From: Basidiobolus ranarum
Lineage: Eukaryota
Assembly (NCBI GenBank): GCA_040143965.1
Contig: JASJQH010000048.1
Span: 1 to 38,251, forward strand
Length of the DNA: 38,251 nt
Direction of reading: 5' to 3'
Notes under the pieces: generated by a model
The model's input: the letters and a program-made list of their open reading frames with translations, nothing else
The model's database searches: none
Told to the model about the DNA's origin: nothing
Program-made: the position numbers and the translations under genes
Shown here: positions 1,802 through 34,100 of the stretch, in pieces
Numbering within the stretch: the stretch's first letter is position 1
Layout: every line of letters starts with the position of its first letter

Positions 1802-4220
1802 TTACCACCATGAGCCAGATGGCTTAGGTTGAGTATTCGCTTCAATCCTCTTATCCACATTAGCAGAGTATTCCAAAATCTTGCTATGAATAATGTCGTC
1901 CAGATCCTCATCTTTACCAGATACGATTCTCAATAGATCTTCAGTCAGGGCGTAGTTTCCAAGAATATCTACATGATCTGCGGTCTTCACCCCTCCTCGT
2001 AGATCAAATTTAGTAAGTTCGTGTTCGAACTCTCTAGTAACAATCTTGATACCAGATGGATTGTACAGCGGCTTTTTCCATCCGCTGGAGCACATGTAGC
2101 CTAACGAGATCAAAGGTACTGTGCCATCTCTAAATGAAATAATTAAAATACCTTGTCTACAGTTAGGAAATGATAGACTCCACTAACCCGTCTGACTCTA
2201 CTATTCCAGATGAAATGTTGTAATCTGCCTGATGAACATTCGTGTCGATGTAAATGTTTGGGTTCAAAAGTTCTTTCGGCAGGATCTTTGAACTCTTAGA
2301 TTCGCCTGCACCAGCTGCTGCAGCATTTTCCGGTTCTACCTGATCAGCCGTGTAGTAATATTGTCTCTCTGTCAATTTTCCGACTCCGTGCAGGCAATAG
2401 ATCTTCATATTGGGTGCGTTGGGTAGTTGCGAATCTAAGGGGTTAGCCCAAGTGGTGGGATCATCGCGTTTTAACTCTCCATTGTCGTTACTAAATCCTA
2501 AGCTGTAAAGTCTGGTGAAGTAGCTCTTAAAGCTTTCATCTCCAGTTTTAAATAGCAACTCTAATGCATCTTCCAAAGTCAAGTTTCGAGTTACCGATTC
2601 CCCTTGACTGAAGGAGATAATTGGCCCATAAGAATGTTTGATATGAGGGATATCATCGGGTGCGGAACTCTCATCTCCCCAGACGTAATTCCCTCCTTTA
2701 GGCATCATTGAGGCCACTCCACCCCACGTACGGAATAGCTCGGTACGTTCACGTCTCGAAAAGAACTGCTCCAACACATAATTAGCAACTGGCTGAACAG
2801 TTTCTCTTTGCTCTCCGGAGAGTAAAGAGCTGAGTGTTTTAGGTACACCGAGCATGGGACCAGCTATATTAACAAACGTATGAATGTAATCATTGACCCA
2901 GTTTGGCCCTCCTTTACCTCCTTGCTCACTCTCCACCCATTGTAGGAAATAATAGATAACATTGGAACCTTGGTGAGAGAATAATCGAGTTACTCTTCTG
3001 AGGTTATCTAGCCAACGTAACGAGATTAAGCTTACCCATTGAATGACCTACGAGAACAGCTTTCTCTCCGGTATACATCTTCGCCAATTCGATAGTGTTC
3101 TTCATACGAGTGAAATGTTGATCACGAACCTCAAGGTCAGCAAATCCTAGACGCCAATCGTATCCAGCAAGATGCATATTGTTATTATCATAACCTATGG
3201 CGGCGAGATTTTCAATAACTTTGCCTAAATTCATTGTATGATTTAATATAAAGAACATGTGTAAGAAGAGAGGAAGACTCTATCCACTGATCTTACCCCA
3301 AATCCAGTATCTAACGATTTCATTAAATGATATGACTATATTAGTACTGTTGACGAGGTTTATCTCTCAAGTGAAAGAAACGTACCCAGTAATGAAATAA
3401 TCCGCCGCATCTAAACCTTGAGCTGCACGAAGTTTAACGTCGGTAGGATCGAGACCAGTGATAGGATCTAGCTTCATATTTTGAATCCAGCATTGTTTGT
3501 CCAAAAGTACCGCACGAAGCATGGCTAAATATCTCAGTTAATATGGCAAGGATTTTATGAACCAGTAAGAAAATATCTCTTACTTGCGGTTCCCCAAAGA
3601 CGTTTCCTGAAATATTTCAAGGCACAATCTGAGGTACTCCAACTTTCCAAGCCCTAGAAAATTAAAGTAAACAGAGATGGAGAGGTTGTTATCGTAAGTG
3701 AATGGAAGCAACTAAGATATCTCTTCAAATTCAAGGTTAAACTTACTGTAGAGATGATTCCTGGGACAAGAATAACCGGATGCTTAGCTTTAACGCCTTC
3801 CAATACCAATTGTTTACCTGGCAAAAAATCCCCAATCTCTTGTTCTGTTTTCAACAAACTGGTCAAATTGTTGAAGATAAAGTCAGGGCTTATATTGGAG
3901 GGTAAGAGTGTAGACAAGTCCAAGTCATGAAATAGATACTCCCTGACTGAGTCTACATAAACACCTATATCTTGATTCTCCACTATAGGCTTCAAGCGAG
4001 CTGCTAATATTGCCCCTAATCCGAAACCGAGGGCAAAGATAAACCGACGCTTACGTGACCAGGATTTTCCAGGCTCTTTTACCTCCGTCGCCTGTACCAT
4101 TTCGTCAACAAGCATTTCTTTGGGATTAGTTTCTTCTGTAGTTGTATGGTCCTTTTGAACCGATGTTTTAGAGAGATCGGAGGATTTCTCGGATTTATTA
4201 TGTAAATGTTTACGTGGCAT
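1802..4220 (-). CDS. LRO1: Phospholipid:diacylglycerol acyltransferase (PDAT, LCAT family); spliced
   Basis: N-terminal TM segment after RKRRFIF, then KHPVILVPGIIST, GYWIWGKVIENL, YDWRL, nucleophile motif GHSMG, LPNAPNMKIYCLHGVGK, DGTVPLISLGYMC and ADHVDILGN. Confidence 0.95.
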
Positions 4221-4515: not shown

Positions 4516-4567
4516 TTCGTATGGTTATTTTCGTATAATGGTTTCGTATAATGGTTTCGTATAATGG
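4516..4567. repeat. 13-bp tandem repeat (TTTCGTATAATGG)x3 plus a degenerate copy upstream of LRO1
   Basis: Exact copies at 4529-4541, 4542-4554 and 4555-4567; partial copy from 4516. Confidence 0.9.
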
Positions 4568-5068
4568 TTAATTACTTCGATGAAAGTCCCCAGTTGTCAA
4601 AGCAAAAGTAAGCATGGCACAGGAGATGTAACAAACAAATCAAAACATCATGTACAGGTTCATTGAGTCATCGAGATACTGGAGATACGGTTAGACAGTA
4701 TTTGGTTAACATTGACATATGATATTCTTAGCCCTAACCCTATTCATGATCCTGCTGATCATTTCTGTACTAGTTTGTTTCGGATTGAAGCGATTTACTA
4801 GGAAGATTTTTGCTTATTGATGCTACTACGTACCTGAGTGTTGGGGTCTAGTCTTAGAATCATGTGATTAGGATCTAATGTAGTGGGTGAAAGGAAAGTA
4901 TGAGAGGAAAGGAGAGGATGCCATGATTGTAGACAACCACCTCCTCATAATCATAGTTCTATCATTGGGAATGAGATAATAAATGAGGGTATGCTAGCAT
5001 GTCATCTCAGCCTTTTCGATAAGGTGAGAGTTTGAGTGAGTAACGACGGAATACAGGAAACAAAGCCA

Positions 5069-6581
5069 TCATCCTTCTTGCATTTCTAAGGGGTAATAGT
5101 GCCCTAAAGCATTCACCACCGTTTGAGAGTCTTCTTGATTTACCTACATTCAAATATATTAACTGTCAAGCTTAAGCCATGATGAAACACATCAATTCAA
5201 AAACTAACCAAAAGATAAACGGTATGATAGGTGGTAAGATAAAATATGGAGATGCCTAGACCTTTAAGCCTTTCTGTACAATCACGTACGATACCGCATT
5301 GCTCTTGAGAAAAAAAATTAGCCAAGACGCTCTTCTTGTCAACAGAATTGTAAATGAAATACCAAATGCAAACGCCGTATTCTCAATCCTCAGTATCGAC
5401 CACGCTCCATCGCAGAAATTGAGACTACCTGGTGGAAATAATGAGAGACAAGGCTCGCTCAAGATCAATGAAGCACTCTCTGAAGTGCGCGTGAATGAGA
5501 AGAATCGATCATCTCGATGTCTGTGTGTTAATTCTAATTAGTATGAAGCAACTACTATAAATATCCATGCCGATGGTTACCTGTCGTTGCTAAAGAAAAG
5601 TAAATGAATCAACGGGATTGACATTGTGTCTTGAACTGCCTCTACGCTTCCGGCTAAAGAGGTCACATAAACTGGACAATCAGGGATGGTCACTACACGA
5701 CGCAAGTTGGTAACTTGTTCGGATGTGGCCATTTCGGGTGAGGATTTCTCTACTTTCGCCACTTCACAGTCCTGGTTCTGTATGGATAGACTCGAGCCAT
5801 CCGTGCTAATTCTTTTACCTTTTGTCAATTTTAAGGAATTAGCTATAAGAAAGGTGAATTATTTTACATCAATACAAAATACCATCGCTACAAGAAGGCG
5901 AGATGTTAAGTGTCACGTCTTCAAGTAATCGTAATTCGTCTCGAATAACAAATGTGTTTGGAAAGCATGATAGAGCTTTTCTCACCGATTCTTCCGGAAT
6001 CTAAATAATACAGAAAATTCAATTTTAGAATGTCTTAATAGAAATTCTACAGAGCATAAACCACCCACCAAGGTATAGTCAGTCTCATACGTAGATAGCT
6101 GAAGAATAGAGATGTCATTGTCGGCTAACGGAGCGGCTATGGAATGTAAACCGGGAACTTTGTAGTTGATAGTAACAAGGATTAGTTAATACGAATAACC
6201 CAACCCACAAAAGGCACTGGACTAATGTCACGGCTTACCTGTTCCACTTTGTCCCGTTAATATTTGAAAAGGAAGGTACACTCTCGGGCAAACAGTCACC
6301 TTTGCTTCTCCAGGAAAGCTATCTATTCCAGATTCGTCCAAGATTAAGGAAATATTGGAGGGGGTTTCAGTAAAACTGAAGAATTCCTTTCCTCTGAATA
6401 AGAAAGTCTTTTAGTTATACTTCGCGACAGTGAATATTGAAGCAAGTCTATTCGACGATGTTTACTCTTTAGGGAACAAAAGCAACTTAATGATAGTATG
6501 TGCGCATATCGGAAGGCTCTCTTTTGCAATAGAGACAAGTCTGAGTCGATAAGGTAAAATACACACTTCCAAGTCTGACAT
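5069..6581 (-). CDS. CASTOR: CASTOR/GATS-like four-ACT-domain protein (homolog of the arginine sensor CASTOR1); 6 exons
   Basis: Manual splicing gives MSDLEVCILPYRLRLVSIAKESLPICAHTIIKLLLFPK-EGKEFFSFTETPSNISLILDE...IAAPLADNDISILQLSTYETDYTL...IPLIHLLFFS...WSILRIENTAFAFEQCGIVRDCTERLKGLGISIFYLTTYHTVYLLVNQ...EG*. This is collinear with human CASTOR1 as recalled (FFSLTETP, IAPLA..SVLMLSTYQTD, GFDECGIV, ISAYYISTF). Exon count is approximate. Confidence 0.88.
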
Positions 6582-6891: not shown

Positions 6892-7789
6892 ATGCATAGA
6901 GAACTTCCATTAAAACAACATGTCGGAGACATAATAGATGAATATACTCGATTACTTCGGACTCTTTTTCGCACAATAGACGCAACTATCGAAGGAAAGC
7001 TAGTTGCTGGTCAGAAAACTCCACAAGAAACAATACGAGCAATCATATTATTAGACGCGAAACTTCAGAAAGCATACGATGAAGGTGGGTTTTCTTATGC
7101 ATTTTTTGAAAGAAAATTATTCCCTTAAGGTAGTAACCTTTTGCACTGATGCTGTATTGAAATTAGTCGAGGAACATCAGAATTACCAACGTCGAATATC
7201 TCAGGTAGAAGAGGAAATCTCGGAATACAATCAAGCGATTAAAGAATTGGTTGAAAAATTAGAAAATACAAAAGAAAACCTCGAATCTATGATAGATCGC
7301 TCAGAAAAAGCCTTGAATACTCTTAATCAAGCTAAAGAAAGTAAGACCCAAAGTATCATACTTGCCCTATTTTTCCCTACTCACATTTCGATGATTTTAG
7401 GCAAACTCAGCTTCAAGGAGATCATATCTTATTCAAACAAGCTCAGCTCATTCACCGCTGCTCCACCGAATTACAATCCGAGCAATACATTTATTCCCGT
7501 GGAACCTCCATACCCAGTTGAAGTTACCATGCGCGCAGGTTCACTCAGTCTTCATCATACCAAAGGAACCGAAGCTGACGCAGTGTCAGGTAATCATCAA
7601 TATCAGAATTGCACTCGCACTCGCGCATACACATTTACTAATAGTGACTTATTGACATTTATAGAAGAATCGGAGGAAGAACAGCCGAGCTATCAAGCCT
7701 TTTCTTTCCTGGCTCAGCAGGAAGAAGAGGAAGCGGCAGAATCCAACGATTTCCTTCTGGATTTAGACTTGAATCCAGATTTAGAGTAA
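6892..7789 (+). CDS. MED4: Mediator of RNA polymerase II transcription subunit 4; 3 introns
   Basis: Coiled-coil middle region (EEHQNYQRRI), then EIISYSNKLSSFTAAPP, PYPVEVTMRAGSL and an acidic tail ending LDLDLNPD. Confidence 0.88.
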
Positions 7790-8119: not shown

Positions 8120-9667
8120 TCATTGAAACTGGGCCCGATACGGCTTGGTAAAGAACGTAGGAGGGAAGATAGCGACAGGGAGTTCAAGTCCTTTGCTGTT
8201 GTCGTAATAGATATCGGCTGTGATTCCACTCAATCTGCCATCACTTTCATGACTAGCATTTTTGCCTGGTAAGCTTTCTAACTCTACGCCAACACATCTA
8301 ACTGGTCCAACAATGTTCAATTTGGTCTTCAACATCATCAAAGGAAGGACAGAGAAAGTGAGGTGGCAATAACCAAGGTCCAGAAATTTAAGCTTATTCC
8401 CAGAACGAAAAATACCTTTCACCATATTATCAATAGAGGACGGTAGATTGCCCACTTCGTCTCCGAGATACAGCAATTCTAATTTAGGGCAGCATAGAAT
8501 CAATTGAGGAATCAAATGACAATCATAAACCGTACGACGTAGCTCTAAGCATGTTAACTCTGAACAATGCTCTGATATTACCTCCAGCCCTTTGGGAATA
8601 TTCATAGAAAGTTGATTTAACCTTAAATAGCGCAACTGTGAGCCTACGCACTTGACCAAACTGGAGAGTCCGGAAAGAGTAACGTCAGTTTTCGATATAT
8701 CGATATCTTGAAGTCGAGCACATTTGCATATCTGCTGTAGTTTAGAATCGTTGATTCCTCGGCTAGATGCTAAAGACACACATCGTAGCTTGGGAAATCT
8801 AGTCAATACATCCAATGAGATGGACTGAAAGTTATATCCAACAAATTCCAAACGATTTAAGCTTTGGCGATGATGGTGATAAAGACTAGCAAGTAGAGCT
8901 TCGATACTCAGAGGTATACCTTCGAGTATAACAGAACACATGGTATTTGGAGATATTCTTTGTAACAATCTTTCCAGTATGGGTGTAAAGTCTCCTTTAG
9001 AAAATCGCACACGAATGTGCAAGTTGGAGAGCTTAGGGGTCACTTGAAAGATAGCTTCGAGATGCTCGGATTGAAGTGCATAATCATCCTTTGTCCAGTC
9101 CAAAGAAATGGATTCCAAAGCGTCGTAGCTACTTGATATATCGATAAGATCCTCGACGGGAAAGCAGCTATTCCAGGACAGGACCTTGAGATTTGAGCTA
9201 GCATAGCGCTCTCGGTACATCTTCCACAATACTCTCAGCTCGAACATAAAGTGCAACCTTATGCTTGCAGTATGTGTAGAGTCTCCTGGCAGTAGATAGT
9301 GCACAAGATAATCGAAGGAATCCAAATTTATACCCTTCACCAAACCGAGATAATTGGTGGTTAACTGACCCAAAAAACCGACATTCAGCAGCTTCTTTAA
9401 CTCAAAAGAAAGTTGGGTCTCAGAATCAATGCAGGCATACAGAATCCGCAAGAATTGAGTAGCCCTAGTTGTATTGATTGTGTTAACAGGCTGAGTTTTA
9501 AAGAATTCACAGGGATTACTATACAATATTGCACTTGACAATTTGAACCAAGACCTATTCACAAGGCAACAATTAAATAGGGAATTCCTGTCGTTCCGAA
9601 GAAACTTTAAAACCTCGTAAGTACACTCTGTGGGTAGCACTATATTCGTTTGGTTTTTCGAATGCAT
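8120..9667 (-). CDS. F-box / RNI-like leucine-rich repeat protein; single exon
   Basis: N-terminal LPTECTYEVLKFL...LFNCCLVNRSW F-box, followed by LRRs (CARLQDIDISKT, CSELTCLEL, CPKLELLYL). Confidence 0.85.
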   Translation of the reverse strand: MHSKNQTNIVLPTECTYEVLKFLRNDRNSLFNCCLVNRSWFKLSSAILYSNPCEFFKTQPVNTINTTRATQFLRILYACIDSETQLSFELKKLLNVGFLGQLTTNYLGLVKGINLDSFDYLVHYLLPGDSTHTASIRLHFMFELRVLWKMYRERYASSNLKVLSWNSCFPVEDLIDISSSYDALESISLDWTKDDYALQSEHLEAIFQVTPKLSNLHIRVRFSKGDFTPILERLLQRISPNTMCSVILEGIPLSIEALLASLYHHHRQSLNRLEFVGYNFQSISLDVLTRFPKLRCVSLASSRGINDSKLQQICKCARLQDIDISKTDVTLSGLSSLVKCVGSQLRYLRLNQLSMNIPKGLEVISEHCSELTCLELRRTVYDCHLIPQLILCCPKLELLYLGDEVGNLPSSIDNMVKGIFRSGNKLKFLDLGYCHLTFSVLPLMMLKTKLNIVGPVRCVGVELESLPGKNASHESDGRLSGITADIYYDNSKGLELPVAIFPPTFFTKPYRAQFQ

Positions 9668-10274
9668 AGTACAAATGGACGAACAAAGAAAGCTATTTAC
9701 TGGAAGGTAAAGATAGTTCCTGATCGGTAGTAAGATAAGAAGCTATAACCGATAAATTAATTCCTTAATTCCAAATTGCGCCTAAGAACATATCACATCC
9801 TATATCCCTCACCCTATACCCTATACTCTATACCCTATCCTCCATCTCTCATCCCAAACCCTAAGTCCTGTTTTAGAACAGTTTTCCTATTTCTCCTGAT
9901 TATGACACACTGTATCTAGCAAGGTAGTCTGATCAATCTTAGTCAGGTAAACTGATAAATCTGCTGATAAACATCATCTGTGTAACAAAATGCTAATATT
10001 AGTTAGATATCTCGGAACATGAATTCCAATCCTAGCCCAAACCCTGAATCTTAAAGCGGAATAACTGAAGCCACCTCCACCTATGCATGATTAAGGGGTT
10101 GGGGTGAGGGCTACATCACATATGATGTCTTTATATAGCAGCAAGCTCCCATATTTGTATTCTATACATCATTGGTTTAGCTTTTGTCATTTTAGGAATG
10201 AATGCTCGTGATCAGTATGTGATTCATGTGTGATCAATTCAGTACACCTTGATGACTGCTCAAAACTCAAGATA

Positions 10275-10482: not shown

Positions 10483-10596
10483 ACAGGATGGAATCAGTAT
10501 CAACCGATCATCCATGAGCTAAACGATTTAGGTGTTAAAAACTTTCTTACACTCCTTTAATTGCCAATTTCTAATTCTAACTTGCGCTATTTAATA

Positions 10597-13132
10597 ATGG
10601 TTACCCAACAACAAGAGACCAGAAGCGAACCCAGGCCAAAGGCTCCTAACAATAATACTAGCAAAAGGCCACAACCTCATTGGAGACACCGTAGACCAAA
10701 GCCAAGAAAAGAAGTAGAAAATAAAGATGGTGCTGCGGAGAATGACGTCAACGCAGTTAGTGATGAAGTAGAAAACGATGATGCTGAACGATGCTTCATT
10801 TGTACCGAGCCTATATCATGTTATTCCGTTGGCTCTTGTAACCATCGCACTTGTCATCTGTGTTCTCTACGTCTGAGAGCACTATACAAAAACAAATCAT
10901 GTGGTTATTGTAAGGTAACTAATATACTTTAACTAATACTTGAAACACTCCAAGTTTTTCTTAATTTTTAACCATAATCTATTAAATAGACCGAGCTAGA
11001 GTCAGTTGTGTTTACTAAGGACCCCGAAAAACTCTTTGAAGCTTTTAATTTAGCAGATTTACCTGCCCGTGATGAGAAAACCTCTGTTTATTTCGATACA
11101 CAGGACTTGTGTGATGAAACTTTAATTATTCTACGGTATAATTGTCCTGATAGCACTTGCGATTTCCACGCTGAAAATGGGTGGAGAGGGTTGAAAGATC
11201 ATGTCAGAATGGTGCACCATCGTTCTTTATGGTTAGTTCATCACTAATAAGTTGCATAGTTGAGCTATTTTCTAAAATGGGACCTTTATGCCTTAACTAG
11301 TGACATTTGTATCAAACATAAGAAAGTTTTTTCCCATGAGCACACACTATATACTCGGGCACACTTACAAAAACATATGACGGTTGGAGATTCCAAAGAT
11401 CCCAATAATACCACCGGTTTCAAAGGTCATCCCGAATGTCAGTTTTGTAAAATATCCTTTTATGACGGTGATCAACTGTTCGAACATTGCCGTCATAAGC
11501 ATGAGCAATGTCATATTTGCATTCGCGATGGAAGCGGGCGAAACGATTACTACGCCAATTACAGCACTCTTGAGCAGCACTTTCTCAAGGATCACTTTTT
11601 GTGTACCCATCAAGAATGCTTAGACAAAAAATTCATGGTCTTTGAATCAGATATTGATTTCAAAGCTCATCTGGTATTGAATTGTTTGTATAGTGTCGTT
11701 ATCCTACAAGTATAGATATTAATATTTCTGACTACTCCAATAAGGTTCAAGAACACAGAGGCGTGGCCAGTCAGAGATCCCAGTTGAAGCAAGCCAGACA
11801 GATCGAAGTTAATTTTACTTATTCGGACAACAACAACAGAAATCGTGGTCGGAATAGAGATCAAGAGAATACACGTCGGGTATGTATGATTTAATATCAA
11901 GTATACACATGCACATACATGGAATCAGCAATTAAACACTACATAACAATGATAGAGAGATAATCAGAACCATCGAAGGGAAAATGACACCAAACCTCCA
12001 GATAATAACTCCAGACACGATGAGCGTGGAAAGAATCATAGAAATGACAAATCAAAAGGAAGAATCAACCCACCCCCCGAATTTGGCAGTACCTTGAGTG
12101 ATCAAGTTCCTTCCAACTCTAACAGCGTTTCCCAAAGTACATCAGATCGTGGGAGTATCAAAGATAAAACCCCGACTGGCTTCGGTCAGCTAAGTGACAA
12201 TGCATCAGGTGCATCTTCTCTGGTTGACGATGATACACTCAGGTAACTACACAATAGGCGTAGCAATGCTTTCAATGCCTAATATTTGATTTGTGTTTAG
12301 TAACCACACTGCTTTTATGGAGAGATTGTCCGGGTATTTGGGAAGAAACAAGGAGCGGATCGAGAATTTTAAAGAGTTGACTGCTGCGTATCGCCGGGAC
12401 CTCATTCCGGTCTCACAATTTCTTGATTCCATCAAGCCACTCGTTCCTGCATCTAAAGACCAGCTTGCGACAACTGGTAAGATTGTGAATGGTCTAGTAG
12501 ATTTGTTAGATGTTGAAGAAAAAAAGCAGGAATTGTTATCAAGTTGGCGTGACCGTAAAATCCAGGTAACTACACTAAACTGATCAGATTATCTCCACAT
12601 ACTTGTCTAACATGTTCATCAGAAAAACAATGAATTCCCTCAACTCAGACCGACCGGGCTGTCCAGTGATATTGCATCCAATAATGCTGCCAAACATGTC
12701 TTAGTTATCAAATCTAAAACATCCAAAGCAAATCAACCTGGTGGCAATGGAAAGACGGGAGTGTGGGATCGTGTTGCTGCTGCGGCGCAGAGGCCATCAT
12801 CTCAGAACAATTCTACCCTTTTCCCCTCTCTACCTTCAGTGTCGAGACCCTCCACTTCGTCTCACACCTCTACCGCTTGGTCTGGACGGTCGACGCCTCA
12901 CTTTGTCTCTCCGGCAGCCTCAGCAGCCCCAAGAAAGACTCCCGCTGATGACTTTCCCTCTTTGCCAGCTGTACCCAAGCCACCCAAAATCAAAGGCATC
13001 TCAAGCAGAAACAAAAAAGACGATAGCGTATGGGGAAAACAAAAGGAAGCACTTGGTGCCGATATGGAAGATTTAGAAATACACGACGGAAAAAAGAAGA
13101 AAGGTAAACAAGTACTACTTCATTTTGGATGA
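10597..13132 (+). CDS. HEL2: E3 ubiquitin ligase Hel2/ZNF598 (ribosome quality control); 6 introns
   Basis: RING CFICTEP...CNHRTCHLCSLRLRALYKNKSCGYCK, C2H2 fingers (GFKGHPECQFC, EHCRHKHEQCHIC), FPxL motifs and C-terminal KKKKGKQVLLHFG. Confidence 0.95.
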
Positions 13133-14439: not shown

Positions 14440-14482
14440 CTTGTGCGTTACCACTTTCTTCAATTAATTAATCTTTTACAAA

Positions 14483-15172
14483 ATGGATTTTCTTTCAAGC
14501 GTTTTTGGTTACAAGAAATCCCCCTCCATCAGTTCCATGAACCGAAGTTATCGCTCTCGCGATAATCTCATGAAGAGGTCTTCCGATAAGGCATCAGTTA
14601 TGGTTGATACTATGAGCTATACTGAAAAACCCAGTACATACAGCACTTGTCCAGCCACTGGACGTAGAGTGGACTCGGCCTACTCTGATAAAAATAGCAT
14701 GTCTGAAGGTTGTCCTTTTTCAAAGCCTATTGAGAACATGATGGAGATCCCATTGGAACTTAAGAAGGATGGCGAGCCAACAATCTTAGAGATACTTGGT
14801 GAAGACCGAGTCGAACAGATCGTTGAACGATTCTATCATCATAACCTAACAGATAGGAGAACCCGGGCGTTCTTCCATGGAATCAATATCGAAAGACTGC
14901 AACGGATGCAGACGGTGTTTTTGGTTAGTCTGTTAGGTGGGAAACCCATTAATATGCGTAAAATGCGGTCTGCTCACAAGCGTCTACTTGAACTCAATGA
15001 TTCTCACTTTGATGCTGTCATGAAAAATTTAATGAGAGCAGCTAAGGATATGCAGGTTCCGCGTAACTTGCGGGACAGGATCCTCGCGGCTGCTGAGATT
15101 ACCCGGGATGATGTCTTAGGACGTACACCGAAACATGAGCTTTATATTAGCTCTCAACCAGATTACTACTAA
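14483..15172 (+). CDS. Group I truncated (2/2) haemoglobin with a ~98-aa N-terminal extension; single exon
   Basis: TILEILG...VERFY (TyrB10)...AFFHG (PheCD1) INIERLQRMQ (LeuE7, GlnE11)...LLGG...MRSAH (HisF8)...HFDAV matches the HbN/GlbN pattern. Confidence 0.92.
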   Translation: MDFLSSVFGYKKSPSISSMNRSYRSRDNLMKRSSDKASVMVDTMSYTEKPSTYSTCPATGRRVDSAYSDKNSMSEGCPFSKPIENMMEIPLELKKDGEPTILEILGEDRVEQIVERFYHHNLTDRRTRAFFHGINIERLQRMQTVFLVSLLGGKPINMRKMRSAHKRLLELNDSHFDAVMKNLMRAAKDMQVPRNLRDRILAAAEITRDDVLGRTPKHELYISSQPDYY

Positions 15173-18626: not shown

Positions 18627-19518
18627 TCTGTGTATGGCTGGTGTGAAATATAGGTGAGGGCTGGTTAGTTTTCAATTCTACGACTGACCTTATATATGGC
18701 CAATCGAGCTGGGGGTTGTGATATATAAGGTAAGCTCGTAAGTTTGGTTTGGGGAGACAGTATTTAATTGCACACTTCTTTGCTTGCCACTTCCCAAAAT
18801 ATAAAGATCCAGGTAGATTTATTTGGGTGGACCATTAGTAGATTTATTCGATTAAATTAAAAAGTGATTTTTCCGGGAGTGATAACACACTTACTTAGGG
18901 TTAGTCTATCCTCTATTGTAAATTGTTTGGAGAATAAGGAAATCTACGCCAATACATCTCTACACCTCGAACTGCGTTCTGGTGGATATTGACATACTTA
19001 ATTCCTAGCCTTAGTTTCGCTCGTGTACGAGGTCATTGTCATTTGTTTATCTAGTAAGCTGTGATTCAATGAACAATCTCGCTATCCAGAAAAATTAGGG
19101 TTAGATCCGCTTGAATGACACCAAGTATTGGATCATCTATACCAGTATTGGTGGATATTGGATTGTTCCATTCAGAATGGATCTGCTATCACATTGAAAT
19201 ATACCGGTTTATAAAATCCAGAATATTGGAATCATAGTTTGCAGTCAGGTATTGCACTAGTTAAAATCATTCATAAAGCCCCCTAAAATTAAATGAATTC
19301 CTGTTGCATACGTCTTTTCTCAAATCCTTATGATTTTTGACCCTATCAAGAATTCCTAATTTTTGTTAGCGTACTTGAGGGTCTATTAGTTGGGTCAGGC
19401 ATTTCTGCTACTATTTCGTAACAAAAGTTAAACCACCTACTACTAGCGACTTTTATACTAAATCTCTTAATCTTGTGAACCATTCTTCTCCATTTGATTC
19501 TTTCTCATTTAACTAAAA

Positions 19519-21004
19519 ATGCATTCATTAAGCCAACATAATAATAATCCCCAGCTACAGCAGTATCTTCAATTGCAACAAGCTGCTGCTATGAAAAATC
19601 CATCCGCTTTGAATGCACCCAATTTAGGAGGTCCATCCACTATGTTAAACAAACTTCCTACCGGTTTGGGAATTCCTAGTGGCTCTAACAATCTTCACAA
19701 TATGAGTAACTCTTTGGGAGAGCCATATTATGGACCTGGAGGAGGCGCTGCTAGTGCTGGGCATAACAATGTAACCATGCCTTTCAGTGGAGCTCAGCAA
19801 CAAAGATATGCCTTGATGGAGGAAGAGGCCATATATTCTTTTATTTTGGATTTATTCCATCCCGACTCTCGAGAACAGGCACTTGCTCAACTTGCCAAAA
19901 GAAGAGAGACGTTTGAGGATTTGGCAGTTGTTTTATGGAATTCCTTTGGTACATAGTCTTTAATATATTTCCGTTTTCTTTGTGTAATAAGAACTGTAAA
20001 TCAGTATACAAAGTGAGTCGGTTGCTTACACGTTTTATCAGGTGTTATGTCGATTCTATTGCAAGAGATAGTTAACGTTTATCCTCTACTCGACGCCGAA
20101 TTGACAAACTCCATTTCCAATAGAGTATGCAACGCTTTAGCTCTACTACAATGTGTTGCCAGTCATAACGAAACTCGGTTACCATTTCTTGGAAGTAAGC
20201 CACTTCAAGCACAATTCAACACATCTCATAAACATAACAAGACTAACAAGAGTGATTGAAATCAGCTCATTTCCCCTATTTCTTGTATCCTATGTTGAAT
20301 ACAACCGACAACAGTAAGCCTTTTGAATACTTGCGTTTGACCGCTTTGGGGGTTATTGGTGCATTAGTGAAAGTTAGTCCCTCTTCAAGAGTTATATATA
20401 GTCACCCTTTCACTCTCGGACTAACATGATTATACTAAATTATAGCAAGATTGTCCAGAAGTAGTCAGCTTTTTGTTAAATACGGAGATAATTCCTATTT
20501 GTCTTCGTATTATGAACCATGGAGCGGAACTTTCTAAAACTGTACTTATGTCACATCGCTTTGATGAGCAACTGTTCAAGATGCTAATTAAATTTCATGA
20601 ATCTATAGGTGGCTATATTCATTCTTCAGAAGATCCTTCAAGATGACTACGGATTACTTTATATTTGTCAAACATATGAGAGATTCTTCGCTGTTATCAC
20701 AGTGCTTGAGAATATGGTCATGCACCTGACTGATAGTCAATCTTGTCGACTACTAAAGCATGTAGTGAGATGCTACCTAAGATTATGTGAAAACCAAAGG
20801 TATGTTCAACTTTCATTTTCTCATCTTAACCAGTATTTCTAACCTTCATTATTTATCAGGGCTCGTGAGGCACTTCAATCATGTTTACCAAATCCTCTAC
20901 GTGATGGTTCCTTCTCACTCACATTAAAAGAGGATTTGGTGGCTAAACGAGCATTAAATCAATTGTTGGTTATACTAACTGAAGGTATAAATTCCGGTAA
21001 TTAG
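19519..21004 (+). CDS. CAF40: CCR4-NOT subunit Caf40/Rcd1/CNOT9; 5 introns
   Basis: [90 protein letters not shown]. Confidence 0.96.
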
Positions 21005-21824: not shown

Positions 21825-26368
<4,544 letters not shown>

Positions 26369-26684: not shown

Positions 26685-28151
26685 CTTAAAATAAATCACC
26701 TATCCCAGATTCAATAGCGAGAGGGCGATCACGTAAAATTGCTTATAATCAGTAGTAATGTTTGCTCAATTTGATTGTAGGAAAGGCAAAACTAGCAAAC
26801 AGTAGTATACGAAATGACTCAATTCTAGAAAAAACCAAGAGTAAATTACTGAAAATAGTAAATTGACTCCACCCAGATAGGTCCAAGAAAGAATAGAGAG
26901 CGGTTTCAAACAAGGAAAGGAAAAAAAGAAAGTAGAATAAAGCGATGGCCAAGGTTGGCTGAATGGGTGTATGTGATGGGACTACGAAAAGTAAAAAGGA
27001 GAACTGAAGACTTGGTTAATTATAAAGATAAATTACCGATCAATAGTATATGGACAATCGTAAAAAATTAAATACAAACAGCTTAACAACAAACCAACTT
27101 TAGTTTACTAGTTTAGACTTGGTCAACAATTTTGACGGCTCATTACCAATGATAACACCTCAAACACCCGATACCTACCCATTACTATATATTCAGAGGA
27201 TTAGCCTATGTTATTGAGGCATATATATAAGTTATACACATGGTACCACTCTACTAGTTTGCGTTAAAAGCGTAGGATCCCAAATAACTGCTAAAGACGA
27301 GATATTGAAATGTCCAAAATAACAGTCAACCTTCTACATCCACAGTATTACGAGAGTGTGAAATGTACCAATTTGGATCAATTACGATGTTATTTGCTGT
27401 CGTCAAACTCGATTATTTTTCAAGATCTATCGCCATTCAGAGAAAAATTTATCGAGATTTGAAGCCAATCAGTTACACGACATCTTAATCACCATCTTTA
27501 AATCTCACTCAGATCATTAAAACCATCAGTGTTAACATGGTCGAGAATTATAGGGGTATTCTGACTGAATTGCAAGATTAACAAGTGTGACTATGACCAA
27601 ACCTGATGACGAAAGATCCCCCAAGCGCAAAGGCATCCGCTGAGACTGTTCTTTTGGTGAATCTAATTTGTGTTGTATATGGGTTAGGTGAGTATCCAGA
27701 TAGGTCAGTTCACTTGAGTATGCCGGGGAAAAGGGAGCTGGGAATAGAGAACTGGGGATCTTCAACCATCAGCCATGAGCCTTACAATCGAAATCATGCT
27801 AATCTTTCTATTGGTTAGGGTAAGTCGCTCTTTACTGTTGTTGTGTTTATCTTAAGCATAATCTAAACAAACCGCTTTCGAATCAGCCCAAGTGATGATT
27901 TTACCGAACTTCAGATAGCCAGTGTTGATTTTAAATGAGGTTACTGTATAAATAATATTGATACTACGTTTTAAGGTTAGTTTTGTTTATTTAAAATCAT
28001 TTGTTTTTGTCACAACTACAAATTATTGGACAATCAGTACACAACAACCAGTGCTCAATAATAGGTAACTGCTCTGGTATATACACTCAGAGTAACCTAT
28101 GATGCTAGTAATAAGAATTCTTGTTATAGCGTACAAATAAATAGTCCTTGT

Positions 28152-31100
28152 ATGAACGAAGATATAACTGAAGATGAATTGGGAATTCTCTACACAAATC
28201 AAAAGGCCATCAGCCACACCTTAGATACACAGTTAAGTGAGGTCAAACCTCATGCTACTATTACCATCGAAATTCCCAAAAGACCAGTAGGCTTAGAGAA
28301 TTATGAAAACAACGAGTTGGTCATATCAAGTAGGAATAAAGCACCGAATCCAACTATAGAAGAAATTTCCACAAAATCTGCAAATACCAAGAACGATACG
28401 AAAAACCTCCATACCACTGTAGAAATTGAAATTGGAAATGTCAATGTAGCCGGTGATAGCAGGTCATGCGAAGTACCTGATACAACTACACCAGAAAATC
28501 CTGGCCATTCAACGACTCCTACCACAGCAGAAATAGAGATTGCTAAAATGGCCGGTGATGGTATATTGTACGAAGCACCCAACACAAATAAGCCGGAGAG
28601 GCCAAATCATTTAACGACTCCTACCACCGTAGAAGTTGAAATTGGAAATACCAAAGTTATTAACGATAATATGCCGACCGAAACACCTTACACAACTAGG
28701 TCAGAGAGTTCTAATCATTCGACTGCTCCTAACACGACAGAAATTGAGATTGGAAATGTCAAAGTGGCTGGTGATAGCATACCATATGAGGAGCCTGAAA
28801 CGGCTACACCGGAAAGTCCTAATCATTCAGCGACTCCTACCACATTAGAGGTTGAAGTTGGAAATACTACCATTGTTGGTAATAACATACCGCCTGAAAA
28901 ACCTGACACAACTAGGTCGGAGTGTCCTAATCATTCAGCAGCTCCCACCACGGCAGAAATTGAAATTGGAAATGTCAAAGTGGCCGGTGATAGTATACCA
29001 TACGAAGAACCTAACATAACTACACCGGAGCGACTCAATCGTTCAACGGCTCACACCACAGTAGAGGTTGAAATTGGAAATGCCAAAGTTGTTGGTAATA
29101 ATATATCCCCCGAAAAACATGATAAAACCAAGCTAGAGAGTTCCACTCGTTCAACGGCTATTGGGGATATCTCCTTGACTGTTGATGACAAACTTGAGAA
29201 TTCTACGAATGATTTATCTTTTGGTGAGCCTCTTCCTTCACTTCCAGCTGATATCCCTCAACCTAGGACTGATGTCCAGATATGGATAAGCCCAAAGTGT
29301 GTAGAGAACGAAGAAGATTCTAAACTCGAAACAACAATGATTAATCCGATACAACGTCAAACTGAAGATTCTCAGACTTCGGACGATTCGCACAATAACA
29401 GTAATACTCTTCCCAATGAACTTATAAGTGAGAGCCTGTTAGTGGTTAATAATGAAGCACAGAATATTGCTCAACATGAGGAAAAAGAGACGTCGAATAG
29501 TTTTGATGAGTCTTCAAATATGTATACAAAATATCCATTGCGAAAGAGAACTGCATTGTCGTTGCACCCATATACCAGATTCTCTTGGACTGACCCTGAA
29601 ACAATGCCAAATGTGATAATCGATACAAGCGTTTTAGAAGAGCCAATTGAGCCTGAAGATAAAAATAAGCAGCATGACTATTACGATAGCGAAGGTGATA
29701 CTGATTACACAGAAACACAAACTCGAAGATTTGCCAATTCTTTAGGAAAGGATGACGATTTGGGATTGATCCCAGAAGCAAGTGAATTGCAAGCACTTCT
29801 CGATGATACAACGGAGTCAAATTCTCACTCTAGAAGTAGTTCGCATCATAAGGTTCAATATAAAAGGAAAAAAAGAAGCAAGTCTTTGATTGTGAAGCTC
29901 ATACTTCCTGGTTATCGTAGAAATCCGATCCAAACTGACGAGTTATCCAGTGCTTATGGCGGTAAATCTTTTCAAGACGTAGACGACTTCTCAGAAACTT
30001 TAGCTCGAGCAGATGAATATCTTCAAGCACTGGGACAGTCGGAACCGCACGATGTAATATCTTCTCCTAGGGCGAAACTAGGAGGGCGCTTGGTGATATT
30101 GGATGATGAAGACGAGGCTGACACTATGAATAATCAGCGACCCACCGGACATCGTGCGATAATTGCTGAGCCAGAGGATCCAGAAACCATTGAATCCATA
30201 CATCAGTTTAGTCGTCAGTCGAAGCATCCGTCAAAATTGACAAAGAAGAATCTTGCTGGAAAACTCCCTGCATCATTTCTACGCGTTTATAACGTTGATA
30301 ATTCATGTCTGCAAGATCAAACCACCGTACAATCAAAGAAAATTCGACAATTGCCCTTGCAATCACACCCACTTCGTATGACTGAACAAAGAGATTCGAT
30401 AGAGAATGGAAGGCCTCTCTCTCCGACCTCGGTATTTTCCGATGAGATGTCAACCAATTCAGATGGCGAAATTCATTCAAGTATTGAATCCGAGGGGGAT
30501 TCTCTTGATGTAGAAGCCATCCAGCAAAAACGTTATAAACAGAAAAGAGCCTCGTCAGGAGTAAATCGCAAACAAAAGCCTATCAACTTCCTCGATATTT
30601 ACGAATTGTTATTAGACGAGTACAAGGACGGCGAAATCCCTAATTTTTTGAGAATTGCTTGTAGGCGATTGCTTCAAAAGCACAATTGGGGCTACGATAT
30701 CTCCGATGATCCATGGAGCAAAATGATAAGCTTCGATCCAAGCTTTATCGATGACGACGCGTATCAAGAGGATCAATACACTCTTTCCGAATGGCAACAG
30801 GGCGGAGATTTCTGGAGAAGAAAATTAAGACGACTTCGTCGCCAGCGAAATGCCCTGAAGAAGCGAGTAGTCAAGCCTTACATCGCAGATCCCAAAAAGC
30901 CACCGACTGATCAGACTCTAAATGATCACAACGATGCAGTAGAACAAACACACAATACAAACCACTCTGTAAGGAAAAGAAAAAGACCATCAAGAATGGC
31001 GATAGCCAACTCTGATGATCCTACTAACCCGTTTGAGGAAATTGATAATGAAGATGTTGTTGAGCATTCATTAGAAACATCCGACCAATTAATAGAGCAA

Positions 31101-34100
31101 TTAGTACCTACCACACCGCAAGAGAATATCGCACCACCAGGTAAGCGGAAGCGAGTTGTAAAATCGAAGTCCAAATCAAAGCTTCAACAAAAACTAGATG
31201 ACGCCACGGCGCAAGGCTTTGTTTCTACTGTAAATGCATGTAAAAAGTTGAAAGAGAATGGTGCAAAGAGAAAGAAGGTTGCAGCTTTTGTGAAAGCACT
31301 TCGAAAAAGGCAGAGTACTAAGGACGGGAATACTTTCACTTCATTGGATGTTGCACGAAATGTTCCTTCAATTTCATCCGAACTTTCTTTAAGTCCTTCT
31401 AGATTGAATTCCCTCCACCGTAGTACCGGCTTAACCCACACTCCAAAGAGTTCTCAACGGAGCGCAGAACCTTTCTATCGCAGACCTGTGCGGCCCTTAT
31501 TACCCCCTAATACTCCCATGTTAAATCATGATATGAGCATGTCCTTTAAAGGTAAACGACAGCGACTCGAAACTATTATTGGCAAAATCAAACGCCTGTC
31601 GTTGAACACCACATCCGTAGATAATACGCAATCACTTTCATCGCAGCTTCATCATAACTTAACAGCAAGTCAAAATGCTCCTCGCAATATGCAATTTACT
31701 CCTACTAAAATGGCAAATCCTCCCGCCAGGTTGTCACTCCTTTTCACACCCAAATCTTCCAGTTCGTTGCCGAGTACGTCCACCCAGATGGTTGACGAGA
31801 ACCTAAGTATTTCTGGTACAGCCGAAAAATTACCTACTACCTCGAAACGCAAAAGAAAGGGGATAGCTCATAGATTGTCCCGTCCCCAGGGTTTTGATGA
31901 AAAAACTACTACTACTTCCAAAGTATCTCACTTTCAAGCTTTAGATGTTGCAAACGATACGCCTAGCTCTACCCAAGCGTTACATACCAAATTGAATAGT
32001 TGGTATATGCAAAACAACCCAAGCAGATTTACTCCTAAACCTCTAATATCTGGGCTCTGGTTCAACCAGAACACCTTTGTAGGTAGAGGTGAGCTTCATA
32101 CACTATTACAAACGCTCGACAGCATTAATTCTACGAAGCCTTATGCTGCTCGGGTTTTCGAAGTATTTGATGCAGATATCATGACAACCGCCACCATTAC
32201 CGAATTTGCACGAATCATTCCACCCTTCATTTCTCAATTTTCCGATCATTTGAACAGAATATGGGATTTGGAAAAATCCAATCAAAAGGCCATTTCGCTT
32301 GAGAGTGAAATGAGTGTCATAAGGAGTGCCAACTCATTATTGGATTTTATAACGGTATTTTTACACGATCGCTTATCTCTTGCTTCTGTAGAAGATAAAC
32401 ATATAGTGTATAACGTTCTCGGTGCTGAATGCACATATCTGTTAAAACGAATCGACTTTTTAGTACGAGAAGAATGGCCAGATACATCTTCCCTGTATTG
32501 GAGTCTGAAAACAATAGGCGAAACTTACTTGCATTTGATTTGTTGGGGTTTTTATCTGAATCTGAACCACAGCCAACTAAAGGACTCTACGTATCCCTGC
32601 TTCAACCTAGTTGATATCTCGAAGCGCTTGATCAAGTTCCTAAGAAAATTTAAACTGGACGAGTTTAAAGTAGACTCTAACGATCAAGGATGTAACAGCT
32701 GGGGGGCCTCGATGTTCATATGTTTAATTCATATCCTGGACAGACTGTCTCAGTATACAAAGTCTCAAGAGGATTGTGACGAGAGTACACTTACTACAGC
32801 TCCCTTCTGGTCGGTATTCAACGAAGCAGTTTTAGAAGATTTGACGGCAACCACACTTGACTCACAGGAATGGGATTTTCCTCCACTGGCCGATAAGGGA
32901 GAGGAGATTTGGAACATGTTGTTTTCTATCTTGCCTCTGTACCAATTCAATGAAAACGGAGTATTCTGCACTCAAAGGAAATGTTTATCCAATTGGTCAT
33001 TAGTACAATATTTACTTGAAAAAACTTCTGGGTTATTGGAATTAAGTGAAAAGTCCTGCATTCCTCAATTCTCGCATCGACAAAGTCGGATGTTAGACCA
33101 TTACATCCGCTCTCTATTTGGACGATGCTATGAGTTGTGCTCGATGTGGCAATGGGATCCCGATCAAAAAGTGCTTCTGCTATTGTATCGGTTCTACGAG
33201 AAACGCCAATTTAAAGACCTTTCTTCTGAGTCACATCCGCATTTCCCCCACTTCTTGAAAGAATTCAGCGGCCTTGTTCCTCGTGAAGTTCAGTTTTCAG
33301 ACACTTGTTTCCACATTTTAATGAAATTTATTTATGTTTCGTTAAATACTTGGTGTGAACGGGCAGTTAGCTTCACAGCCAACCTGATGCAAGAGAAGTC
33401 CAAAAGAGAAGTCCGATCCTTTGTGTCTAGAATATCACCTACTCGTGTGCTCAAATTTACAAAGTCGCAAACAACCGCCGATTATTCGCCGCTGTTGAAT
33501 CACTACAACCTGATGCTGATTTTTGCTTTGACAATTCCCAGTTCCATAAAGCCACGATCGACTGTGCAGATGAAGAGCTACCTGAACTTCGTTGAGAGCG
33601 ATCAGATGTCTCGAAAGATATATATCGAAGGCTTTACACTGCTAGGACTAATATATCAATATCGCCGAGAGAAAATCCTGCCAATCTTGGAAGTTTTAAA
33701 CGAACGAATGTCACAGGTAACGCAAGAATATCTAGATATGGAAGACAAACGAGCCATCCCTTACATTCCATCTATATTTGGTGAACGCCCTTCGGACGAG
33801 TGGCTATCAGAGAACGATAGAATGAAACTAACCCACACTCAAGCAAGCGTTGTTGAGTTGCTTGAGCTTTTCTTCAACCAATACCGACGATTAGCTGCCG
33901 GCGAAGACTACCTGATAACCGAGTTCATTAGCACCGGTAAGGTTATTTTTTTTAAGGTTATTTTCAATCGACGCTCATTCTATAATAATTATTGACCATT
34001 CTCCTCCAGCTTGGTCCATTATGCTAAATCCAAGCCTGAAGTTTGCTCACAAGATACGCATGAGCTGCATAAATCACGTCAACAATTTGCTCAAAATCCG

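Follow-up and report, generated by a model that had tools for sequence, protein, structure and literature searches.

The closest described systems include human CASTOR1 and human CASTOR2. Human CASTOR1 (GATSL3; PDB 5I2C, 5GS9, 5GT7) is an arginine sensor in which Asp304 forms a salt bridge with the ligand and Ser111 contacts its alpha-amino group, and it is released by arginine from Mios, a subunit of GATOR2. According to the available text of the original reports, the D304L mutant had no measurable Kd for arginine (PMC5020642), the D304A mutant did not bind arginine and pulled down more GATOR2 (PMC5187391), and S111A/D304A and D304A served as apo-locked forms for cryo-EM (PMC12477443). In the human complex, as described in the accessible parts of PMC12477443 and PMC12507694, Mios Arg137 pairs with CASTOR1 D121, and H112 and Y118 are also in contact. 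Y236A in CASTOR1 and H136A in Mios break the complex (PMC12477443, same part), and CASTOR1 with residues 85-90 deleted or residues 86-94 changed to glycines is not released by arginine (PMC12507694, same part). Human CASTOR2 (GATSL2; PDB 9KPB, 9KPG) is bound to GATOR2 regardless of arginine and can heterodimerise with the sensor, as stated in the available text of PMC5020642 and PMC5187391.

CASTORs of early-diverging fungi are already published. Castor1/Castor2 were reported in several early-diverging fungal phyla in a survey that lists the Basidiobolus meristosporus protein ORX93369.1 (PMC11836306); presence and expression are discussed in the accessible part of that survey, not pocket residues. 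In the part of its supplement that was available, ORX93369.1 and two other B. meristosporus entries are listed, and ORY06794, a B. meristosporus protein with Val at the position of Asp304, has 0 occurrences. The gene described here, also with Val at that position and called the Val copy below, was not found in print: searches returned no literature on Basidiobolus together with CASTOR1, most subscription papers being beyond their reach, and nothing on bioRxiv on fungal CASTOR paralogues and ligands.

The window, which is the whole stretch of 38,251 nucleotides of Basidiobolus ranarum DNA that was analysed, carries on its minus strand a CASTOR gene extending from an ATG at 6581 to a stop at 5069, with 8 exons and 7 GT-AG introns of 59-81 nt. 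The joined exons were translated as an uninterrupted frame of 347 aa, rather than the approximately 330 aa first estimated, and a search with exon 6 retrieved the same reading from the public annotation of the 38,251-base contig (P0001, 347 aa; source name 'GATS protein-like 3 [Basidiobolus ranarum]'). The features of the gene are as follows, X1 being a run described below.

6466..6581, minus strand: exon 1, with the ATG at 6581 and the start of ACT1; piece of the Pfam Castor1_N match; X1 joint 6393-6466
6239..6393, minus strand: exon 2, remainder of ACT1, followed by the short beta6-alpha3 ('release') loop; X1 support
6069..6157, minus strand: exon 3, ACT2 with Ser107 and the Mios-pocket motif; ACT_7 at 32.3 bits
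6108..6110, minus strand: Ser107 codon (human Ser111, alpha-amino contact), from the sequence and its alignment to human CASTOR1
6078..6089, minus strand: Tyr114-Glu115-Thr116-Asp117 codons (human Y118, Q119, T120, D121; Mios pocket), from the sequence and its alignment
5883..6000, minus strand: exon 4, last part of ACT2 and then the first part of the linker
5581..5818, minus strand: exon 5, low-confidence linker and then the start of ACT3 with the dimer helix
5363..5520, minus strand: exon 6, ACT3 and then the start of the pocket lid loop
5293..5369, minus strand: codons of lid-loop residues 290-295 (human G274-G279), interrupted by intron 6; X1 joint 5303-5363
5209..5303, minus strand: exon 7, ACT4 including the floor of the pocket; X1 shows 0 differences over 5207-5303
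5218..5220, minus strand: Val320 codon GTT (column of human Asp304; GAT in the Asp paralogue), from the model, the alignment, and X1
5069..5143, minus strand: exon 8 with the stop codon, from the model and X1

Exons were checked against the contigs of run X1, the kind of which is not on record. The contigs are spliced, and since they are 95-99% alike to the window their source appears to be another strain or a close relative. For the exon check proposed in the original prediction, these contigs support the model: introns 1, 2, 3, 5, 6, and 7 are skipped where modelled (6/7), and intron 4 is indicated by a 16-letter loose end only. The GTT codon of Val320 is unchanged in X1. An alternative splice of the last intron that would change the Val region was looked for in X1 and not seen; it is ruled out by an X1 joint that fits the model and by the position of the Val codon, 10 bases inside exon 7. 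Eighteen letter differences from X1 were listed, the list being incomplete for one record with 8 differences; 11 are coding, and 10 of the 11 are synonymous (35% expected for transitions). The dN/dS of the Val copy against its Asp paralogue (see below) was approximately 0.05, a rough value with dS near saturation (pS 0.73). Because the frame is open, the joints are present in X1, and the differences are mostly synonymous, the gene is shown to be intact, spliced, and under purifying selection. In addition, 5880 and 5744 are separated by just 11 letters in one X1 contig (window 5744-5880), as if 20 codons of the linker had been lost in frame; the junction has no canonical splice ends and a short side of 20 letters, and may be an allele, an isoform, or an assembly bubble.

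The Val copy was compared with known families using Pfam, PDB sequence matches, and a predicted structure. Castor1_N was matched at 66.5 bits (cut-off 26.5), ACT_7 twice, and CASTOR1_ACT-like once, all above cut-off and with no kinase domain, which is the domain set of the CASTOR family. The top PDB sequence matches were human CASTOR2 and CASTOR1 (E 3e-29 to 9e-26), and an Atlas search agreed with the assignment. An AlphaFold2 model based on a 125-sequence alignment had a pLDDT of 86 and a pTM of 0.86, and its four-ACT fold matched CASTOR structures in Foldseek at E 1.8e-23. Compared with human CASTOR1, with which the four-ACT fold is shared over the whole chain, the model gave a Z of 34.7 and an rmsd of 2.2 for 277 aligned residues at 28% identity; Z ranged from 28.4 to 34.7 for CASTOR entries and was 13.8 for the next family, aspartate kinase. 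The HMM and structure comparison proposed beforehand, together with the 8-exon model, thus bore out the expectation that the short exons splice into a four-ACT protein collinear with human CASTOR1, and the four motifs quoted in the original prediction were located at residues 104, 112, 290, and 315.

The HMMER alignment of the Val copy with human CASTOR1 shows no gap between the lid loop and the last helix and pairs Val320 with Asp304, in agreement with the proposal that the arginine-binding Asp is replaced by Val; the assignment rests on this ungapped sequence alignment, as the structural matches give ranges and not residue pairs. The alpha-amino contact of CASTOR1-type arginine sensors is retained (Ser107 for Ser111), and their salt-bridge residue is absent. 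The equivalents of S111, Y118, D121, F275, C278, G279, I280, V281, and T300 are kept. Six further residues differ from human CASTOR1 in the Val copy (Q119 is Glu, Y236 Ser, L273 Phe, G274 Ala, E277 Gln, and F303 Thr), and these six positions differ from human in the Asp paralogue as well. For the Mios pocket, the motif STYETD had been read as the conserved counterpart of human STYQTD, which is correct for Y118 and D121 but not for Q119, and Y236 is replaced as noted. Of the positions I202 and Y207, which we take to be the dimerisation residues of the CASTOR ACT1/ACT3 helices, I202 is kept and Y207 is Phe. Judged by these sequence features, the Val copy is a genuine member of the CASTOR family but, by the defining residue, no CASTOR1-type arginine sensor.

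Four full CASTOR genes were found in the B. ranarum genome, three of them without the Asp, so the implied view of the Val copy as the CASTOR of this fungus did not hold; a sole CASTOR gene is ruled out by the Asp paralogue and two Ala-type genes. The Asp paralogue (P0002, contig C7307, 354 aa) is 75% identical to the Val copy, has the same eight-exon layout, and carries GAT (Asp) at the codon, one base apart from GTT (Val). At the 12 remaining positions on the list of arginine contacts and lid residues (equivalents of S111, V112, L113, L273, G274, F275, E277, G279, I280, V281, T300, and F301), the two paralogues are identical. Position 286 in the lid loop is Asp in the Asp copies and in Mortierellaceae and Olpidium, and Asn in both Val copies. 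The two further four-ACT genes, found with a Phycomyces protein as query on C1908 (L018) and C6954 (L019), encode 368 and 372 aa and both have Ala at the Asp304 site. In B. meristosporus, an Asp copy (P0003, ORX93369.1) occurs together with a Val copy (P0004, ORY06794), the latter a 173-aa partial model with an apparent retained intron. No clear synteny was detected between the contigs of the Val and Asp copies of B. ranarum beyond the gene and one weak match.

The intron phases of the Val copy mirror its internal duplication: introns 1-3 have phases 2, 1, and 0, and introns 5-7 have phases 2, 1, and 0 at matching motifs. The same six phases are found in the Asp paralogue and in both Ala-type genes. 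Because the phases repeat at matching motifs and are common to all four genes, this arrangement suggests that the six mirrored introns are older than the event that turned two ACT domains into four.

The Val and Asp copies of the two species cluster with Asp-type CASTORs of Olpidium and Mortierellaceae. In 152 shared columns of this quartet, 7 sites pair the Val copies (one being the Val column itself) and 1 pairs the sequences by species. The Val pair was supported at 76/75 in a short core without the Val column and at 97/85 in a 22-row tree with it. With the Val column left out, the tree pairing the two B. ranarum copies, as expected of a separate duplication in each species, was rejected (p-AU 0.013). 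Because the quartet is nested among Asp-type fungal CASTORs, Val is the derived state and replaced Asp following a duplication that predates the divergence of B. ranarum and B. meristosporus; the vertebrate CASTOR duplication is a separate event. The Val pair has changed faster, with 20 of 137 core positions altered against 8 of 137 in the Asp pair (p 0.027), a difference compatible with relaxed constraint and equally with a new role.

Replacement of Asp304 was implied to be exceptional, which a family survey contradicted. A whole-protein word search had returned 3 Basidiobolus proteins among 1684 candidates, and the survey was therefore built on representatives. The best 150 of 490 representatives and P0002-P0004 gave 153 aligned rows, from which 19 without an aligned motif were dropped. 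In the remaining 134 rows, the Asp304 column holds Asp in 87, Ala in 16, Ser in 10, Gly in 9, Asn in 5, Glu in 3, Val in 2, Thr in 1, and His in 1; it is thus free of acid in 44 of the 134 rows drawn from the best 150 of 490 representatives and P0002-P0004, and loss of the arginine Asp is common in the family. Rows without Asp are spread over several separate clades. Among the 134 surveyed rows, Val occurs in the Basidiobolus pair only. In the same survey, D121, the symmetric counterpart of D304 in the first half of the protein, is Asp in 140 of 145 rows, and because this exceeds the 87 of 134 rows with Asp at D304, the Mios pocket is the more constant feature of the family.

A fungus-wide Ala-type clade (Cladochytrium, Paraphysoderma, Phycomyces, Piptocephalis, Syncephalis, Jimgerdemannia, Calcarisporiella, and the two B. 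ranarum copies) resembles the Val copy in lacking the Asp304 equivalent and keeping the D121 motif, and shares six intron positions and phases with it. Its members belong to chytrid, zoopagalean, and mucoralean fungi. It is separate from and older than the Val pair (100/100); derivation of the Val copies from it was rejected (joining, p-AU 1.9e-5), the Val pair being nested among Asp-type fungal sequences. Going by its residues, the Ala-type clade is probably arginine-blind.

The genome was examined for GATOR2 partners, as had been suggested at the outset. A Mios gene was located on C359, and pieces with best PDB matches to WDR59 and WDR24 were located on C7005 and C7879; the B. ranarum Mios protein was absent among the 48 matches of a protein search. 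The Mios loops can be aligned to human MIOS 108-148 without a gap, with His112, Lys135, and Arg137 kept and His136 replaced by Val, as in many other fungal Mios. The same loop motif is present in Mortierellaceae and chytrid Mios. Both halves of the central salt bridge (D121 and Mios R137) and the Y118/H112 pair are kept in B. ranarum, and these conserved residues support the predicted link of the Val copy to GATOR2. The neighbours of the Val copy have unrelated housekeeping roles and do not form a TORC1 gene cluster; they encode an LCAT-type acyltransferase (2163-3047), Med4 (7055-7789), an F-box protein (8120-9742), a ZNF598/Hel2-like RING protein (10561-11715), Rcd1 (19513-19956), and a protein kinase (25313-25780).

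The beta6-alpha3 release loop (residues 78-100 of P0001-P0003) spans 22 residues in the Val copy and the Asp paralogues and, counted on the alignment, 28 in human CASTOR1, in which it is 6 residues longer; the Val copy thus lacks the long release loop of CASTOR1-type arginine sensors. The named holozoan rows have spans of 28-30, and most fungal rows have spans of 22-24; the family median is 24 (135 of 153 rows), and 11 of the 135 rows are at 22 or less. Because the loop is long in holozoan rows and short in most fungal rows, the published release mechanism may be a feature of the animal lineage. By analogy with the human loop variants, the short loop favours constant Mios binding by the Val copy. 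Since the loop of the Asp copy is equally short, arginine sensing should not be presumed for that copy either.

The reading preferred here, with a probability of roughly 0.5, is that the Val copy is an arginine-blind GATOR2 binder and a natural counterpart of human D304A/D304L. As in those mutants, Val would be unable to form the guanidinium salt bridge, and arginine would remain unbound and cause no release. The protein would then bind Mios at any arginine level and act as a standing brake on TORC1, either in homodimers or in heterodimers formed with the Asp paralogue that damp or shift the arginine response. This reading is supported because Val is found at D304 in two species, Asp is found in the sister copies, and the other 12 pocket positions are identical; the constancy of the D121 column, the kept Mios residues, and the purifying selection on the gene also speak for it. 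The same position is free of acid in the engineered human D304A and D304L proteins, from which the Basidiobolus change differs in being natural, kept in two species, and accompanied by an Asp paralogue. The proposed role is that of human CASTOR2, which, unlike the Val copy, keeps the Asp and has an arginine-bound structure (9KPG, by title). The reading is weakened because kept pocket walls and contacts to the alpha-amino and carboxyl groups are also expected of a sensor for another amino acid, and because Q119, Y236, and Mios H136 differ from human; moreover, a third arginine-blind copy looks redundant because two Ala-type copies already lack the Asp.

A distinctly less probable reading is that, after duplication of the Basidiobolus CASTOR, the one change in the pocket floor made this copy a sensor for an uncharged amino acid, held by the kept backbone contacts and releasing the protein from Mios, which would feed TORC1 a second input through GATOR2. 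Methionine, leucine, glutamine, and citrulline would be candidate ligands. Such a sensor would account for a floor that has lost its charge while all other listed pocket residues are kept, for the loss of a second lid-loop acid at position 286 in both Val copies, for the maintenance of Val in two species, and for loss of Asp in several separate clades; lysine or threonine is the ligand of the related ACT domains of aspartate kinases, according to the available text of PMC5187391. The pocket residues may however be kept for the fold, and the release loop, at 22, is among the shortest in the family. The backbone carbonyls to which guanidinium binds in human CASTOR1 (accessible text of PMC5020642) also still line the floor, which disfavours a purely hydrophobic side chain. 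The original prediction named a different, possibly hydrophobic, ligand or none; 'none' is better supported, by human D304L and D304A, and nothing tested points to a hydrophobic ligand. If a re-specified sensor were correct, the repeated losses of Asp (Val, Ala, Ser, Gly, and Asn clades) would represent unrecognised nutrient sensors with different ligands.

It is somewhat more doubtful still that fungal CASTORs have no role at GATOR2 and use the pocket around Asp117 for another partner or ligand, Val being incidental drift in a duplicate. The faster change of the Val pair and the differences in the interface at Q119, Y236, and Mios H136 would agree with this, and no fungal CASTOR-GATOR2 binding experiment was turned up in the literature searches. 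It is opposed by retention on both sides of the D121/Mios R137 salt bridge and the Y118/H112 contact, and by recurrence of the Mios loop motif in Mortierellaceae and chytrids.

Weak binding of arginine (or lysine) by the backbone carbonyls, with a response at high concentration only and a wider sensing range, is an unlikely explanation. Five backbone hydrogen bonds to the guanidinium are independent of side chains in the available description of human CASTOR1 (PMC5020642), and CASTOR2, first scored as non-binding in the accessible text of PMC5020642 and PMC5187391, now has a crystal structure with arginine (9kpg, by PDB title). CASTOR2 nevertheless retains the Asp, and human D304A and D304L had no measurable binding within the titration range used (PMC5020642, PMC5187391, same text). 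Finally, a sequencing error, a wrong splice, or a dying duplicate, suggested by the single base between GTT and GAT and by the partial B. meristosporus model, is very improbable and already largely refuted, as the same codon in the spliced X1 contigs and the Val of the second species rule out a sequencing error, and the frame is open with canonical introns and 10 of 11 listed coding differences synonymous.

Taken alone, the Val-copy gene is an unremarkable representative of an established family. Together, the Val and Asp copies amount to a controlled experiment set up by nature, with two copies in one genome that are approximately 75% identical and differ at one residue among the listed arginine contacts. 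The pair could reveal whether arginine is sensed by fungal CASTORs in the first place, whether the old function of the family is to bind GATOR2 and not to sense arginine, and whether duplicates turn into ligand-blind brakes, as proposed for CASTOR2, or into sensors of new nutrients.

Several other features were recorded in the genome and the window. An intronless, half-size gene of 141 aa with two ACT domains lies beside a DEAD-box helicase-like gene (C8320:4813-5238, minus strand; G000, L011:3314-3739); it is 42-46% identical to plasmid-borne bacterial 'ACT domain-containing proteins', and transfer from bacteria is possible on these identities. In the window, a frame at 14468-15172 on the plus strand has a bacterial-like truncated globin domain (PF01152, 43.5 bits). 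An 826-aa open frame at 21825-24305 on the minus strand had no Pfam match and weak Atlas leads only (best 0.84). A 1976-aa open frame of the Mus7/MMS22 type at 28065-33995 on the plus strand has, towards its N terminus, 4.9 copies of a 108-bp tandem repeat (28582-29105), and a perfect 13-bp tandem repeat (3.2 copies) is located at 4529-4569, downstream of the CASTOR gene.
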